A DNA stretch of 64,000 nt from a virus: IMG/VR virus record IMGVR_UViG_3300044611_001420. One strand, 5' to 3'. The notes under the pieces were generated by a model. That model was not told the origin of the DNA and did no database searches. It worked only from the letters and a program-made list of their open reading frames with translations. Within the stretch, counting starts at the first letter, position 1. Each line of letters opens with the position of its first letter. Of this stretch, positions 54,920 through 62,806 are shown in pieces. Position numbers and translations under genes: made by a program.

Positions 54920-54948
54920 TTGACACTCAAAAGTTGTTGATGTATGAT
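54920..54948 (+). promoter_or_regulatory. Sigma70-type early promoter
   Basis: TTGACA (54920-54925), 17 nt, TATGAT (54943-54948). Confidence 0.85.
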
Positions 54949-54953
54949 GAAAA

Positions 54954-55050
54954 GGTCTTCGCAACTTCGTAGCTTTGAGTTGCAAGACCCGTCCTGTGGT
55001 GGGGACGGATTTCAAGGTGGAACAACGGGGGTCTCTGACCCCTTTTTTTT
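54954..55050 (+). ncRNA. Putative structured small RNA, family unassigned
   Basis: Begins at the expected TSS. Stems GGTCTT/AAGACC plus GCAACTT/GAGTTGC, then CGTCCT/GGGACG, then a terminator. GC-rich island in AT-rich DNA. Confidence 0.65.
55028..55050 (+). terminator. Intrinsic terminator
   Basis: GGGGTC-TCT-GACCCC followed by T8. Confidence 0.85.
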
Positions 55051-55057: not shown

Positions 55058-55080
55058 ATAGTGTATAGTGTGTGTCCCTG

Positions 55081-55776
55081 ATGAAAAATACTTATTATAC
55101 TTATGCTTGGTTAAGAGAAGATAAGACCCCTTACTATGTTGGTAAAGGTATTGGTAATAGAGCATATCGTTCTCATAAAAGAGGCAATAAATATATGCCT
55201 TCTCCACCAAAAGATAGAATAATATTTTTAAAGAAAAATCTAACGGAGTTTGATGCATATAAGCACGAAAATTATATTATCACTATTTTGGGTTTAAAAA
55301 GTGAAGGTGGTTTATTGATTAATATGTCTTATGGTGGAGAAGGAAGTTCTGGAAGAAAACCTAGTGAATATTGTATTGAAAGAACTAAACAAGCAAATAT
55401 AGGGAAAACTCTTACCGAAGAACATAAGAAAAAGGTTTCGCAACAAGTATCTCAAAGGAGATGGTGGAATAATGGAGAAATAGACAAGCATACTATTGAA
55501 TGTCCTGGTGATGGATGGGTTCTTGGTAGATTATTTAATTCTAAAAGTGAGAAATACAAAACAAAAGATTTTGCTGAAAAGTCAAGAAGAACCAATTTGG
55601 GGAAAATTGTTAGTGATGAAACAAAAATGAAACAAAGTCAAAAAAGAAAAGGAAGAAAGTGGTGGAATAATGGAGATAAAACAAAGTTATGTTATGAATG
55701 TCCTGGTGATGGTTGGGTTCAAGGAAGACCTGGACCACTTTTCCAAGTGTCCATTCGGGAATCCCAAGAGCAGTAG
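55081..55776 (+). mobile_element. Free-standing GIY-YIG-like homing endonuclease with NUMOD3-like and duplicated WWNNG..CPGDGW..GR repeats
   Basis: YYTYAWLRED.TPYYVGKG..NR...E...L.N...GGEG; GKTLTEEHKKKVS; ATG at 55081. Confidence 0.8.
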
Positions 55777-55802
55777 TCTCTGGTATGATTACGGAGTAGT
55801 CA
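55733..55802 (+). promoter_or_regulatory. Dyad-box / extended -10 promoter of the VWA-peptidase gene
   Basis: GACCACTT-TTCC-AAGTGTCC, 31 nt, TGg-TATGAT (55784-55789); no TTGACA. Confidence 0.7.
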
Positions 55803-55814
55803 AAAGCAAACCAG

Positions 55815-58004
55815 ATGTCGGTAAATCTAGAAGTTAAAGGAATGCTGGCTAAATGCCTTGCGATGGAAAATATTATCATTGAGCATAAAAAAGTTCCAAC
55901 TGCTATGTTTGATGTTGAACGTAGGGTATTGACTTTACCGACTTGGGACAAAGCAAGTGATACGGTATATACACTTTTGGTTGCCCACGAAGTGGGCCAT
56001 AGTTTGCATACCGATAATATTGACTGGACAAAAGATTACCCAGAAGTGCCCAAAGACTTCGTAAATGTTCTGGAAGATGTTCGTGTAGAACGTCTGATGA
56101 AGAAGAAGTATCCTGGTCTGTCTAGGACTTTCTATAATGGTTATAATGAACTCAACAACGATGATTTCTTCTCCACCAAAGATGAGAAACTGGATGATTT
56201 GAGTTTTATTGACCGAATTAATCTCTACTTCAAGATTGGTGCATTTCACAACATTGCCTTCAATGATGAAGAAAATGAGTTTCTGACTCGTGCTTCATTG
56301 ACGGAAACCTTTGATGAAGTTCTGCAACTTTCCCGTGATATTGTTGAGTTTGTAAAATACAAAAGGCAAAAAATCAGCAATATGCCCACTCCTGGTGGTA
56401 GTGAAGAAATGTCTGGTCCTGGTGGGGAAGAAGTAGAAACTCCTCAACAAACGTCTTCATCTGAAGATGGTGATAATTCTAACGGAAAGAACAAAACTGA
56501 ATTGGATCAAGACTCACAGGGACAGTCTCAATCTGAAGGTGAATCTTTCGGTGAAGAAATGTCCAAGTCTATTGAAGCACCAGAGGGTGGTGGATTCGGG
56601 CAAGACCCAAGTGATAAGCACGGAAAAACTCTTGAAGATGAACTGTCATCTAAAACTTCTCGTTCTTTTGATGAAAAGTCTAAAGATTTGGTGGATAAGT
56701 ATGCTCAAGAAACTCATTATGTGGAACTTCCTAAGATGAATCTTGAGACAATGATTATTCCCAATAATTATATTCATTATAAAGCAAAAGAGCATTACGC
56801 AAGTGTTGGTTCTTGGGTTCGTGATGCTTATGACCTTGCTTGTAAGGAATATAATACCTACAAGAAATCAGCAGAGAAAGAAGTTTCTTATCTGGTAAAG
56901 GAGTTTGAGTGCAAGAAGTCTGCTGACCAGTATGCTCGTTCTAGTGTTGCTAGAACTGGTGTTCTTGATACACAGAAACTTCATACTTACAAGTTTAACG
57001 AAGACCTGTTTAAGAAAGTTTCTGTAGTCCCTGATGGCAAGAATCACGGTCTTATCTTCATTCTTGACTGGTCTGGTTCAATGGGTGAATTCATTCTGGA
57101 TGCATACAAGCAACTTCTAAATCTCATTTGGTTCTGCCGTAAGGTGAATATTCCTTTTGAGGTTTATGCTTTTACTCTTGATTGTCATTCTTATGCAGAA
57201 CTTCAACCAAATCATCCTCCTGTCTATGAAAGGGTTGCAAATGTTCTATCACCTGAGAATTCTTTCCGTTTGATGAACTTCTTCACCAGCAAAACAAATA
57301 CTCGTGTTCTTGAAGAACAACTGAAAAATATTTGGGTTGCTTGTTACTTCTTTCAAAAGAAAATGGGTTCTGTTCCTCGTCATCTTGACCTTTCTGGTTC
57401 TCCTATTGGTGAATCTCTGATGGCACTACACTCTTTGATTCCTGATTTCCAGGCAAAGAATAAACTACAAAAGGTCAATGTCATCTTTCTGACTGACGGG
57501 GAAGGGTATCAGAATTCAGTGACAACTGAAAGAAAACTTGGAGATGGTACAACCAGAATTGGTCATACCAAACACTCTCGGACTTCAATTCGTGATCGTA
57601 AGACTGGTAGAATCTATCAACCTTTGAATTACGATAACTTCCCTTTGTATGCTAAAGTTCTTCTTCAAACAGTCAAAGATAAGTTCCCTATGGTGAATGT
57701 GATTAACTTCCGTATCACCCCTAGTCGTGATTTTTCAAACTGTTATCGTTGGTATGGTGGGGGTCAGTCTTCGGAATACGAAAAAATCAAAACTGATTAT
57801 CGTAAGGAAGGTTGTGTTCAATTTCAAAACACTGGGTTTGACCAATTCAATGTGGTTCTTGCATCTTCTCTTGCTCAAGATGAAGAGTTCTCTGTTCCTG
57901 AGAATGCAACAAAGTCCCAGATTAAATCATCATTTGTGAGGATGTTGGGTAAGAAGAAAACTAACAAGAAACTGCTCAGCAATTTTATTACTCTAGTTGC
58001 CTGA
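55815..58004 (+). CDS. CobT-like metallopeptidase + VWA protein (partner of CobS-like ATPase)
   Basis: HEVGH (HExxH), NVLED.RVE; MIDAS DWSGS and FLTDGE. Confidence 0.85.
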   Translation: MSVNLEVKGMLAKCLAMENIIIEHKKVPTAMFDVERRVLTLPTWDKASDTVYTLLVAHEVGHSLHTDNIDWTKDYPEVPKDFVNVLEDVRVERLMKKKYPGLSRTFYNGYNELNNDDFFSTKDEKLDDLSFIDRINLYFKIGAFHNIAFNDEENEFLTRASLTETFDEVLQLSRDIVEFVKYKRQKISNMPTPGGSEEMSGPGGEEVETPQQTSSSEDGDNSNGKNKTELDQDSQGQSQSEGESFGEEMSKSIEAPEGGGFGQDPSDKHGKTLEDELSSKTSRSFDEKSKDLVDKYAQETHYVELPKMNLETMIIPNNYIHYKAKEHYASVGSWVRDAYDLACKEYNTYKKSAEKEVSYLVKEFECKKSADQYARSSVARTGVLDTQKLHTYKFNEDLFKKVSVVPDGKNHGLIFILDWSGSMGEFILDAYKQLLNLIWFCRKVNIPFEVYAFTLDCHSYAELQPNHPPVYERVANVLSPENSFRLMNFFTSKTNTRVLEEQLKNIWVACYFFQKKMGSVPRHLDLSGSPIGESLMALHSLIPDFQAKNKLQKVNVIFLTDGEGYQNSVTTERKLGDGTTRIGHTKHSRTSIRDRKTGRIYQPLNYDNFPLYAKVLLQTVKDKFPMVNVINFRITPSRDFSNCYRWYGGGQSSEYEKIKTDYRKEGCVQFQNTGFDQFNVVLASSLAQDEEFSVPENATKSQIKSSFVRMLGKKKTNKKLLSNFITLVA

Positions 58005-58011
58005 CCACCTG

Positions 58012-58035
58012 GGGGAGTATTTAATACTCCCCTCT
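58012..58035 (+). terminator. Hairpin, probable terminator
   Basis: GGGGAGTAT-TTA-ATACTCCCC; short T tail. Confidence 0.65.
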
Positions 58036-58043
58036 TATAAATA
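58036..58043 (+). promoter_or_regulatory. T4-type late promoter
   Basis: Exact TATAAATA, 19 nt before ATG 58063. Confidence 0.75.
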
Positions 58044-58062
58044 ACTAAAAAGTATTTGTAAA

Positions 58063-58890
58063 ATGGACGCTAAAGACATTCGCAATCTTCATGAAGCATA
58101 TTTGGAAGTTTATCAAGAACAGCAACTTGATGAAGGACTCAAAAAGGCATTTATAAAAGCATATGGTAGAGCATATGCTACTGCGGGTGATGATTATGCG
58201 GATGAAGATGATTTTGAACGAGAAGCAAAAATTAGATCACATATTGAAAGAAGATATGGACCTGAAACTGCAAAACACGCAGATGAACATGGATATGTTC
58301 AAAGCACAGGAAGAAGATATGGAAGACCTGAACCAAGAATTCAACCAAATAGAAAGTTTAAGACTACAAAAGCAGGAAAAATGCCTAAAAATGCTCAAAA
58401 AGCATTTAAGAATGAGTTGATTCTTAATAAATCCGAAAGAGATAGTCCAACGATTGGTGGAGTACGTAAACCCAAACATTGGGGTAAAGTTGGTGGGGAA
58501 AAAGGACTTCCTGAACAAGTAGACCTCTACGACATCATCCTCTCACACCTTCTTGATGAAGGGTATGCTGAAACTCAAGAAGCAGCAGAAGCAATCATGG
58601 TGAATATGAGTGAAGATTGGAGAGATAGTATTTGTGAAGCAATGGTTGATTCTGGACTAAAAGGTCAAGAAAAGAAAAAAATTAGAAATGAAAGAAACTT
58701 TGAAACAAATACATTATCTAAATCCAAATCCACCAAAGAAAGACATAAAAAGCATAGAGAAATACGAGGTATGAAAAAAATAAAAGGTGATAAAACTGGA
58801 GAAAAAGAATCTTCAATTTTAGCACAAAGTTCTAGGGTTCATAAGTCATATAATAATGGATATAATAGAGATGGTAGTTATATGGGTTGA
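58063..58890 (+). CDS. Late-expressed charged protein with YDIIL.HLLDEGYA.T.EAA.AIMVNMSE.W module
   Basis: Clean ORF with its own late promoter and a downstream hairpin plus T-run (58913-58937). Confidence 0.75.
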   Translation: MDAKDIRNLHEAYLEVYQEQQLDEGLKKAFIKAYGRAYATAGDDYADEDDFEREAKIRSHIERRYGPETAKHADEHGYVQSTGRRYGRPEPRIQPNRKFKTTKAGKMPKNAQKAFKNELILNKSERDSPTIGGVRKPKHWGKVGGEKGLPEQVDLYDIILSHLLDEGYAETQEAAEAIMVNMSEDWRDSICEAMVDSGLKGQEKKKIRNERNFETNTLSKSKSTKERHKKHREIRGMKKIKGDKTGEKESSILAQSSRVHKSYNNGYNRDGSYMG

Positions 58891-58960
58891 GACCACTCCC
58901 CAAACTGTCCCAAGGTGTCCCAGAGGCACCTTTTTTTGTGCTATGATTACGAAGTAATCA
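58891..58960 (+). promoter_or_regulatory. Dyad-box / extended -10 promoter of cobS
   Basis: GACCACTC-CCCA-AACTGTCC, 31 nt, TGc-TATGAT (58942-58947). Confidence 0.7.
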
Positions 58961-58969
58961 AACAAACCG

Positions 58970-60103
58970 ATGCCTACAAAATCTAACATTATGACTGACC
59001 AAGCAATCTCTATTCTGAAAGAAAAGTTTGGCACCGAGTTTGGTGTCGATGCTGTAAAAGAAGTGGCAGCAGAACTGGGCACTTCGTATGCGACTCTTTC
59101 TAAGTATCTGAATCAATACAAGACTGGTCGTGGTAAATGGAATCTGGAGGCAACTGTGCAAGAACTTGAAGAAACTTACAACTCTCCTGCTGCAGAAGGT
59201 TCCGATACGGTTCCTGGTGTGGCAACTATGAATTCTGTTGTTCAAAATCTTATTCCTAAAAAAGATGATACCTTCGTCAGCTTTGGTAATTTCTCTGATA
59301 TTAAGAAAGTTATTCAGTCTGGTCTATTCTATCCTGCTTTCATCACTGGGCTTTCTGGTAATGGTAAAACTTTTGGTGTTGAGCAATCTTGTGCCCAACT
59401 GAAACGAGAACTTATTCGTGTTAATATCACGATTGAGACTGATGAGGATGACCTGATTGGTGGTTTCCGACTCGTCAATGGGGAAACCGTGTGGCACAAT
59501 GGTCCTGTTGTGGAAGCAATGGAACGTGGTGCAATTCTTCTGCTTGATGAGATTGACCTGGCATCTAATAAGATTATGTGTCTGCAATCTGTCCTGGAAG
59601 GCAAAGGTGTCTTTCTGAAGAAAATTGGTAAGCACGTTGTTCCTAAAGCAGGATTCAATGTGATTGCAACTGCAAATACCAAAGGTAAGGGTTCTGATGA
59701 TGGACGTTTCATTGGCACCAATGTTCTCAATGAGGCATTTCTAGAACGATTCCCAATTACCTTTGAGCAGGATTATCCTACTCTTGCAACGGAAACCAAA
59801 ATTTTGACAAAGGTGGCAGAATCACTTAACATTCCTATGATTGGTGAGCATACTGATTTCATCAAGCATCTCTGTACTTGGTCTGAGATTATTCGTAAGA
59901 CCTTTACTGATGGTGGTATTGATGAAGTAATTTCTACTCGTCGTCTGGTTCATATTATCAAAGCATATTCTATCTTTGGTAAGAAAGACAAAGCACTAAA
60001 AGTTTGTCTGAATCGTTTTGATGATGAGACTAAAAGTACCTTTGTTGAACTTTACGACAAGATTGATGCTGAATTTCAGCAAAATAAAACAGAAGAGGGG
60101 TGA
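58970..60103 (+). CDS. cobS: CobS/MoxR-like AAA+ ATPase
   Basis: Walker A GLSGNGKT, Walker B LLLDEID, ATANTKG, NEAFLERF, STRRL. Confidence 0.9.
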   Translation: MPTKSNIMTDQAISILKEKFGTEFGVDAVKEVAAELGTSYATLSKYLNQYKTGRGKWNLEATVQELEETYNSPAAEGSDTVPGVATMNSVVQNLIPKKDDTFVSFGNFSDIKKVIQSGLFYPAFITGLSGNGKTFGVEQSCAQLKRELIRVNITIETDEDDLIGGFRLVNGETVWHNGPVVEAMERGAILLLDEIDLASNKIMCLQSVLEGKGVFLKKIGKHVVPKAGFNVIATANTKGKGSDDGRFIGTNVLNEAFLERFPITFEQDYPTLATETKILTKVAESLNIPMIGEHTDFIKHLCTWSEIIRKTFTDGGIDEVISTRRLVHIIKAYSIFGKKDKALKVCLNRFDDETKSTFVELYDKIDAEFQQNKTEEG

Positions 60104-60119
60104 AACTCCCCTTTTCTTT
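60091..60119 (+). terminator. Intrinsic terminator
   Basis: AGAAGAGGGG-TGAAACT-CCCCTTTTCT. Confidence 0.7.
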
Positions 60120-60158
60120 GATATATAAGAACAAGTCCTCTACCCCTATTGATTTTCT

Positions 60159-60287
60159 ATGACTTCAATTTTTTTGGAAAAAGATTCGGACACAATTTAC
60201 GAAGAATTTCAAGATACAACTGAAGACACTCAAGAGGAAGAATATAGAGAGGATAGGTTGGATCAAATGATTTCTAAGTACGGTTGA
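60159..60287 (+). CDS. 42-aa acidic hypothetical protein, absent from ORF track
   Basis: MTSIFLEKDSDTIYEEFQDTTEDTQEEEYREDRLDQMISKYG. Confidence 0.55.
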   Translation: MTSIFLEKDSDTIYEEFQDTTEDTQEEEYREDRLDQMISKYG

Positions 60288-60298
60288 TATGAGGTCTT

Positions 60299-60439
60299 AT
60301 GATTCAAAATATGGAACAAATTATCAAAAAAGAACATATTGAAGAGCTTGAAAATTTTGCTAATTATTTGGGAGTTGATTTTGAAGATTACATAGAGTAT
60401 CTTCATCCAGATGTAGATTTTGATGACTATTCTAGATAA
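60299..60439 (+). CDS. 46-aa acidic hypothetical protein, absent from ORF track
   Basis: GAGGT RBS; MIQNMEQIIKKEHIEELENFANYLGVDFEDY...; next ATG follows after 1 nt. Confidence 0.6.
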   Translation: MIQNMEQIIKKEHIEELENFANYLGVDFEDYIEYLHPDVDFDDYSR

Positions 60440-60440
60440 A

Positions 60441-60611
60441 ATGGAAGAATCACAAATTGATGGGTACATTAGTTCAGATAGAATGTGGGCAGCAGTGCCC
60501 TGGCACAAAAATAAGTATATCTCCATTTATAATGGACAACAAATATGTGTTCATCATTCCCTTGAAACCGCAAAGAAATTCATTCAAAAGGAAACTCGTA
60601 GAAAAAAATGA
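60441..60611 (+). CDS. Hypothetical protein
   Basis: ATG 60441; GYISSD.MWAAVPW...NGQQ. Confidence 0.65.
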   Translation: MEESQIDGYISSDRMWAAVPWHKNKYISIYNGQQICVHHSLETAKKFIQKETRRKK

Positions 60612-60871
60612 TTAGTGCAATTGAAACCTTTCAACAAAACGAAAATCACATCTATGTTCGTGGTATTGTGGAAGATATGGTGGAAGTATATCCTCCGACT
60701 CTTTATGACCCACCAGAATATGGTCCAGCACTTTGTGAAGCAAGTTTTGAATTGGATGAAGATGAAGTTCTTCCTGAAGGTGAAGATGCTTTGCTTGATT
60801 ATCTAAATGAACTTTACCTTGATTGGAGGATTATAGATACTAGTGATTATAATCTTGGTTTTACTGAATGA
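60608..60871 (+). CDS. Acidic hypothetical protein
   Basis: VEDMV...T.YDPPEYGPALC; ATGA-coupled at both ends. Confidence 0.7.
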   Translation: MISAIETFQQNENHIYVRGIVEDMVEVYPPTLYDPPEYGPALCEASFELDEDEVLPEGEDALLDYLNELYLDWRIIDTSDYNLGFTE

Positions 60872-61098
60872 CTTCCTACTATTTTTGGTTTGGAATTTTT
60901 ATGTTTGTTGGATACTTGATAGCAACAGATGATAGTGTTGCTTATGCTGTTGTATTAGTATCTAAAATTGTAAAGTTCCAATACGAAAAAACAAAGTGGT
61001 GGATACTCCATAATCCTGCAAATCCAATTGTGAAGTACCTAATATGGCGTCGTGCATTAAGACTTGCGAAGGAACTTGAAAAAGAATTCAAGAAGTGA
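60868..61098 (+). CDS. Small membrane protein
   Basis: Hydrophobic N-terminus; WWILHNP.NPIVKY. Confidence 0.7.
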   Translation: MTSYYFWFGIFMFVGYLIATDDSVAYAVVLVSKIVKFQYEKTKWWILHNPANPIVKYLIWRRALRLAKELEKEFKK

Positions 61099-61130
61099 TA
61101 TAATTAGTATTGTGTTTATTCGCACACATT

Positions 61131-61361
61131 ATGGCTAGAACTCATCGCAATCTTGAAGGAATGCATAGGGGAGCACTTCGTTTTCCACATACCTTCAACG
61201 AAATTAAACAGTTGGATGGAATCTTACACGAAGAAGACTTGGAGGGTCTTCCAGTTTCTGGATTGAATCATATGAAAGCACGAGAGCACCAGTTGCCGAC
61301 TGCTTGGGATGATAGAGTTGTAAGTGGGTATTATCAAGAAGATTATGAAACAGACACCTAA
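61131..61361 (+). CDS. Hypothetical protein
   Basis: MARTHR...LR.PHTFNE...LPTAWDD; ATG at 61131. Confidence 0.65.
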   Translation: MARTHRNLEGMHRGALRFPHTFNEIKQLDGILHEEDLEGLPVSGLNHMKAREHQLPTAWDDRVVSGYYQEDYETDT

Positions 61362-61408
61362 TTAAGTGTCCTTCACCCTTTCCCAAGAACGGGGAAGGGT
61401 GTTATAAT
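61352..61408 (+). promoter_or_regulatory. Dyad-box / extended -10 promoter
   Basis: AGACACCT-AATT-AAGTGTCC, 31 nt (containing an 11-bp hairpin), TGt-TATAAT (61403-61408). Confidence 0.7.
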
Positions 61409-62582: not shown

Positions 62583-62806
62583 GTGATTCTTATTGGTTTA
62601 ATAAAAAATGGGGTCTTAAACAGAATACTCCTATGGATGATGTTTATGAACGTTTAACTCAACTTGAAAATGAAGTCAACAAACTAAAAGAAGAAAATAT
62701 AGAATTGACAAATTCGTTGTATGAGGTTGAACACAGATTACAAGCAAAGATTGACAATATTCATCCAGTAACCTACAATTTAAGTAATTATACTCTAGAC
62801 AAATGA
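62579..62806 (+). CDS. Coiled-coil hypothetical protein
   Basis: Heptad segment [28 protein letters not shown]. Confidence 0.7.

Follow-up and report, generated by a model that had tools for sequence, protein, structure and literature searches.

Promoter-early stem-loop (PeSL) cassettes have been described in T4-type phages (Arbiol et al. 2010, PMC2839356; Comeau et al. 2014, PMC4122927). In Prochlorococcus and in Synechococcus of marine origin, yfr2 promoters carry CGRE1, a palindrome of 21-22 nt whose proximal edge lies at -55 to -57 of yfr2 and which was published as the inverted repeat AACTGTCAC-N1-2-GTGACAGTT (Lambrecht et al. 2018, PMC6191309). These promoters are responsive to PMM1637/PlmA, and the CGRE1 motif was bound in pull-down experiments and electrophoretic mobility shift assays by PMM1637, a GntR regulator from Prochlorococcus MED4 (PMC6191309). 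Here, we analyze a 64,000-nt stretch of viral DNA, hereafter the window, which corresponds to the minus strand of bases 24469-88468 of the 122,923-bp IMG/VR virus record IMGVR_UViG_3300044611_001420 (estimated completeness 59%). It carries a class of putative promoters in which a two-fold-symmetric upstream element stands at a fixed distance from an extended -10 box, and this element recurs ahead of host Yfr2 genes.

The MotA box of T4 is centred at -30, contains no dyad and requires AsiA remodelling of sigma. Because T4-like cyanophages do without the MotA/AsiA switch, it is only partly understood how host polymerase is targeted to their first genes. For two of these phages, Syn9 and P-TIM40, a 'novel regulatory element' of early genes was reportedly found by Doron et al. 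in 2016 (ISME J 10:1437).

Anatomy and conservation of the promoter class

Three promoters of this class lie in the window, with the following parts:

55736-55752, plus strand: box 1 as first annotated, CACTTTTCCAAGTGTCC, followed 31 nt on by TGG TATGAT
55732-55753, plus strand: upstream element 1, with left arm GGACCACTT, N5 and right arm AGTGTCCA, within the last codons of the open reading frame (ORF) 55072-55776
55781-55789, plus strand: extended -10 of promoter 1 (TGG TATGAT), serving the peptidase gene
58894-58910, plus strand: box 2 as first annotated, CACTCCCCAAACTGTCC, followed 31 nt on by TGC TATGAT
58890-58911, plus strand: upstream element 2, AGACCACTC, N5, ACTGTCCC, directly 3' of the stop of ORF 58063-58890
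58912-58938, plus strand: terminator-like hairpin with a T-run, filling promoter 2's 31-nt spacer in part or whole
58939-58947, plus strand: extended -10 of promoter 2 (TGC TATGAT), serving cobS
61355-61371, plus strand: box 3 as first annotated, CACCTAATTAAGTGTCC, followed 31 nt on by TGT TATAAT
61351-61372, plus strand: upstream element 3, CAGACACCT, N5, AGTGTCCT, overlapping the stop of ORF 61110-61361
61374-61401, plus strand: stable hairpin in the spacer of promoter 3 (11 bp, -20.5 kcal/mol)
61400-61408, plus strand: extended -10 of promoter 3 (TGT TATAAT), serving the small ORFs from 61432

The first-pass annotation of this DNA had described three boxes, each exactly 31 nt ahead of TATGAT, TATGAT or TATAAT with a preceding TGn, lacking TTGACA and with hairpins in two of the spacers, and the analysis bears this description out. 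Specifically, the distance holds at every site, none of the three has a -35 (the nearest sequence being TTCCCA at site 3), and hairpins occupy the spacers of site 2, with an 8-bp stem and a T7 run that we call terminator-like, and of site 3, where the 11-bp stem reaches z = -3.0; no significant hairpin was found in the spacer of site 1. The pattern CACYY-N4-AASTGTCC matches three times in the window compared to 0.00 times in 100 dinucleotide shuffles, and a chance origin of the boxes was rejected on this basis. The loose pattern TGTCC-N31-TANNNT has no power alone (3 matches vs 3.2 expected), though its matches are exactly the three sites, and in a positional 5-mer enrichment upstream of all genomic TGnTAnnnT the signal was drowned by a repetitive coding region.

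When the copies are lined up by their -10, the element measures 22 bp, with (G/A)G(A/G)CCA(C/G)TT as its left arm, then five bases, then A(G/C)TG(T/G)C(C/A)N as its right arm; in condensed form it reads GGACA(C/G)TT-N5-A(G/C)TG(T/G)CC. Its outer bases form the dyad GGACA-N10-TGTCC, of which the CACTT-N4-AAGTG noted at first is the inner portion. Assuming a transcription start about 7 nt past the -10, the element would span roughly -64 to -44, with its centre near -54.

Across the record, the class numbers 12 promoters or more, which begin at 55.7 kb and all share the strand of the window, including these:

-10 at window-frame 69043, 69936, 73994, 74089, 77947, 79294, 82554, 85272 and 86097, window strand: nine further copies beyond the window's end

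One extra copy, at 64166, is doubtful. The right arm stands 31 nt from the -10 in 10 of the 12 copies and 30 nt in the other two, and the end of the left arm correspondingly at 43 nt (10/12) or 42 nt (2/12); TGn precedes the -10 in nine of the 12, and a -35 is not conserved. A scan of IMG/VR for AAGTGTCC-N24-38-TGNTATGAT yielded at least 114 matching loci, and among the 114 matches listed the distance to TATGAT is 30 or 31 nt in 44, compared to 1-10 matches at each of the other 13 spacings. As such, the spacing of other copies is not random, with the nine further copies at 31 or 30 nt and the IMG/VR peak at 30-31.

This distance is kept even where the intervening sequence is exchanged. In related cassettes (L028, L053 and the record's own copy at 69043), the spacer hairpin is swapped wholesale, GGTGTC/GGCACC vs GACCCC/GGGGTC, with pairing and the 31 nt retained; since the hairpin sequence is replaced yet the length stays, this argues for a distance constraint at the level of DNA. 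Between window sites 1 and 3 on the one hand and site 2 on the other, the spacer sequences are likewise unrelated, yet arms and 31-nt distance stay the same.

Conservation also extends to orthologous genes in Syn9, the one cultured T4-like cyanophage that was compared. Upstream of Syn9 cobS (gp153) we find CACCT-AAAT-AACTGTCC, a terminator hairpin and then TGCTATAAT at spacing 30, and upstream of the gp150 peptidase gene, the orthologue of the gene behind window site 1, there is again a box with TGCTATAAT. Window sites 1 and 2 are therefore conserved at orthologous genes in marine and freshwater phages. The box also precedes several small Syn9 ORFs at 43-53 kb. Judging from these Syn9 sites, the box class very probably corresponds to the element that Doron et al. 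reportedly described for early genes in 2016. The earlier suggestion that similar motifs might already be reported for cyanomyoviruses is, in view of that study, probably right; a motif description for that element was not found in the other literature searched.

The present record shows that the class extends to a freshwater phage and to a tRNA array. The array (C1:10636-14317, window strand, beyond the window's end) comprises about 25 tRNA genes together with a tmRNA gene of permuted type. It lies directly behind two tandem box promoters with their -10 at C1 14475 and 14380, and it is closed by a perfect dyad, GGACACTTTATCAAGTGTCC, with a T7 run, which doubles as the box of the next promoter. 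The record's DNA is carried by 24 runs, and because all 24 are lake-water DNA metagenomes, the phage is a freshwater T4-like cyanophage rather than a marine one.

A second dyad, TGATTAC-N3-GTAATCA, overlaps the -10 and the likely start site at window positions 55786-55802 and 58944-58960, at window-frame 69938-69954, at Syn9 cobS and at L038, L040, L053 and L102. Promoters with this dyad form a subset of the class found at non-orthologous genes, and the leader behind the dyad measures 16-20 nt and lacks a Shine-Dalgarno sequence. It could be a shut-off operator or a conserved mRNA 5' end.

The element of host Yfr2 promoters

Yfr2 genes (Rfam Cyano-1) were located in 61 Cyanobiaceae genomes, and 41 of their promoters were read. 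These host promoters carry an arm GTG(A/C)CAGTT or AGGACAGTT, whose end lies 43 nt (21 promoters), 44 nt (14) or 42 nt (4) from the -10. In other words, 35 of 41 host promoters have their arm 43-44 nt ahead of the -10, and the phage left arm lies at 42-43 nt. In low-GC hosts, the Yfr2 promoters contain the published inverted repeat AACTGTCAC-N-GTGACAGTT. In high-GC hosts, they mostly read GGACAGTT-N5-AGCGNCC, which is the phage layout, and AGTGTCC itself occurs in L246. Conversely, the exact CGRE1 half-site AACTGGCAC is the right arm of five phage copies (74089, 79294, 82554, 85272 and 86097).

The correspondence was further examined in two tests with host models built without any phage information. 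A 9-mer model of the host arm, applied to 53 phage promoters that had been picked solely by right arm and -10, singled out one offset, at which 14 of the 53 scored, compared to 0-2 at each of about 100 others. A host-only 22-nt model, run over both strands of the phage genome, placed 13 of its 14 top hits on 11 boxes of the class, with a top score of 21.3 (15.0 in the reversed-sequence control); genome-wide, element 1 ranks 6th (C1 32716) and element 2 ranks 11th. The right arm of element 2 matches the host half-site model at p = 1.6e-5. The phage boxes thus share their sequence and register with the host Yfr2 promoter element, and comparison of the two sets makes it very likely that they are one and the same element. 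A Yfr2 (Cyano-1) gene was not found in an Rfam search of the phage early region.

Within the host set itself, most high-GC Cyanobiaceae Yfr2 promoters lack the published CGRE1 inverted repeat (L238-L265, L213, L220, L224 and L226), and in some Synechococcus Yfr2 copies the full palindrome sits over the -35 region.

Proposed borrowing of a host factor and competing explanations

The available data are best accommodated by a model in which these are -10-only promoters of the host RNA polymerase, probably assisted by a protein of the host that binds at about -54 and for which PlmA is the prime candidate. Unmodified host polymerase would read a strong, usually extended -10 without a -35, and a DNA-binding protein already present in the cell would be borrowed by the phage to make up for the absent -35. 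The small early-type genes, cobS, the peptidase gene and the tRNA array would be switched on in this way upon DNA entry. Many copies have the upstream gene's terminator built into the 31-nt spacer, so that each unit would close one transcript and open the next, in the manner of PeSLs. A borrowed host protein is the most likely binder because the element, its internal spacing and its distance to the -10 equal those of host Yfr2 promoters, and a host factor would suffice since the same element in the same register precedes the host Yfr2 small RNA genes.

The PlmA-family GntR regulator itself (PMM1637 in Prochlorococcus MED4) is a plausible candidate for the binder, although we hold this step with somewhat less than even confidence. 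Going further, we suggest tentatively that T4-like cyanophages may launch infection from copies of the host Yfr2 promoter, which would bring their early genes and tRNA array under a host regulator of the PlmA type that responds to nitrogen and high-light stress, and that the everted layout shared by the phage and the high-GC Cyanobiaceae Yfr2 promoters may represent a second, undescribed binding mode. We know of no publication linking phage early promoters to the host Yfr2 promoter or to PlmA.

Several points weigh against this model. No RNA run carries the phage DNA, the 24 carriers all being DNA metagenomes, and for this reason promoter activity and timing are inferred here. At window sites 2 and 3, the fit of the left arm to the host model is weak. 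In Syn9, the host 22-nt model does not, by raw score, rise above its reversed-sequence control, and the informative hits are those with a -10 at the right distance. Furthermore, the phage half-sites are everted, with their centres about 13 bp apart vs 10 in CGRE1, and a single GntR dimer may be unable to fit both everted arms. Finally, the yfr5 promoter, which has the half motif only, was not shifted by PMM1637 (PMC6191309).

Among the alternatives, the one that survives best, if still unlikely, is a phage-encoded activator that, whether produced very early or delivered with the virion, binds the box as a functional analogue of T4 MotA. The abundance of the class in phage genomes, with at least 12 copies here, and an everted half-site order unlike the published host CGRE1 would fit such a protein, and its gene could lie outside the 59%-complete record. 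However, the same element and register, phage-like layout included, stand ahead of host Yfr2 genes, and the genes served resemble a first-expressed set that would precede any phage protein. MotA, AsiA and GntR domains were not found in the 59%-complete record, although the MotA and AsiA searches matched no control genome and are weak negatives; marine T4-like cyanophages are in any case reported without motA and asiA (PMC5780444). The MotA-like function put forward in the first-pass annotation accordingly finds no support, given a site at about -64 to -44 rather than -30, nor does the analogy to middle promoters, since the genes served are of early type (small ORFs, cobS, peptidase and tRNA array). 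What stands of the proposed dimeric activator site is a two-fold-symmetric, protein-type site at fixed distance with its centre near -54, where the bound protein would presumably activate rather than repress.

Improbable, in our estimate, is a reading without any dedicated factor, according to which the C-terminal domains of the RNA polymerase alpha subunits touch the element in the manner of an UP element at host Yfr2 and phage promoters alike. The stretch from about -64 to -44 is indeed the zone of UP element action, and the absent -35 needs some compensation. Yet UP elements are rich in A/T and have no two-fold symmetry, the phage element is a G/C-containing dyad, and its half-site belongs to a motif bound by a GntR protein (PMC6191309).

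Of similarly low probability is the view that the repeats are chiefly PeSL-type recombination cassettes for the shuffling of small genes, with promoter geometry secondary. Near-identical units, spacer included, do occur at separate loci (window site 2 and copy 69043; L053 and L028), which is compatible with cassette-mediated shuffling as judged from these sequences, and small ORFs are flanked by combined terminators and promoters as in PeSLs (PMC2839356). Such shuffling is, however, compatible with a promoter function, and the constancy of arms and 31-nt distance despite unrelated spacers (sites 1 and 3 vs site 2), as well as the occurrence of the element in host promoters, speaks against it as the chief role.

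Last, the dyad might act in RNA, as a 3'-end hairpin of the upstream transcript that serves as terminator or processing site. Such a role fits one copy, at window-frame 77900, where the dyad forms a perfect 8-bp stem with T7 behind it, directly 3' of the tmRNA gene. It was rejected as highly improbable because the three window sites offer 3-5 stem pairs that fold with no more stability than shuffled sequence (site 1 z = +0.3), changes in the arms are not compensated (CACTC vs AACTG), and the constant distance runs to the -10 rather than to the stop codon upstream.

The explanation that we favor is a host factor at about -54. Geometry within the class is preserved to the base, the genes served include conserved ones (peptidase and cobS) as well as a tRNA array, and the element matches that of host Yfr2 promoters; in place of an 'unknown binding protein', this host match offers one named host regulator as a candidate for direct experiment. 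It hints that the nutrient and light status of the host could gate the start of infection. If it holds, this mimicry of a host promoter is the interesting part of the findings.

Genomic setting and comparison with known systems

By DNA similarity, the window resembles Synechococcus myoviruses only, with 75-79% identity across cobS. The local gene order, namely homing endonuclease, peptidase (phrog_459), a gene of unknown function, cobS, and small ORFs with ferredoxin, is syntenic with Syn9 gp150-gp153:

55072-55776, plus strand: homing-endonuclease ORF, HNH/homing endonuclease families phrog_10820 and phrog_314
55815-58004, plus strand: peptidase gene, phrog_459 peptidase, E 5e-246
58063-58890: ORF whose stop lies directly 5' of upstream element 2
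58970-60103, plus strand: cobS, downstream of promoter 2
61110-61361: ORF whose stop is overlapped by upstream element 3
from 61432 onward, plus strand: small ORFs, downstream of promoter 3

The late region and the peptidase gene flank the homing-endonuclease ORF, whose final codons carry box 1. Canonical sigma-70-type promoters stand beside the box class at 54920-54948, 61076-61104 and 62751-62779, with TTGACA or TTGAAA, 17 nt and TATGAT, TATAAT or TACAAT; they precede a small RNA region at 54954, ORF 61110 and the ferredoxin gene at 62803. Elsewhere in the record, Rfam gives a match to a group I intron at C1 17256-17507 (58.7 bits), next to three tRNA genes at C1 17537-17720.

Set against the described systems, the class shares with PeSLs a repeated intergenic unit of early promoter and terminator stem-loop ahead of small ORFs in a plastic region, in which the stem-loop often separates the upstream promoter element from the -10. 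A promoter and an adjacent terminator stem-loop are combined in one unit at sites 2 and 3 and at copies 69043 and 77900; site 1 is without a hairpin. The two differ in that PeSL promoters come close to the sigma-70 consensus (TTGACA-N17-TATAAT) and have A/T-rich upstream sequence, whereas the phage promoters have no -35 and a specific dyad at about -54.

With the MotA-dependent middle promoters of T4, the class has in common the missing -35, the different upstream word in its place and the extended -10. It differs in that the phage box lies at about -54, is a dyad and serves early-class genes, compared to a MotA box at -30.

The element that Doron et al. reportedly described in 2016 likewise belongs to T4-like cyanophages and small early-type genes and joins an upstream element to a host-type -10 without MotA or AsiA. 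The present record differs from it as an uncultured freshwater relative, in which the right arm is mostly A(G/C)TGTCC.

The comparison with CGRE1 shows a difference as well as shared features. The phage boxes do not form its 21-22 nt inverted repeat (C/T)AACTGTCAC-N-GTGACAGTT(G/A): their arms are everted across a gap of 4-5 nt, with none upstream of the left arm, so that the second arm lies upstream in CGRE1 and downstream in the phage. Both, however, share the 9-base half-site GTG(A/C)CAGTT / AACTG(G/T)CAC, and in both the proximal arm ends 42-44 nt ahead of the -10, with its edge near -56 if the phage start site is placed as above, and a -10-only promoter follows downstream in host and phage alike.

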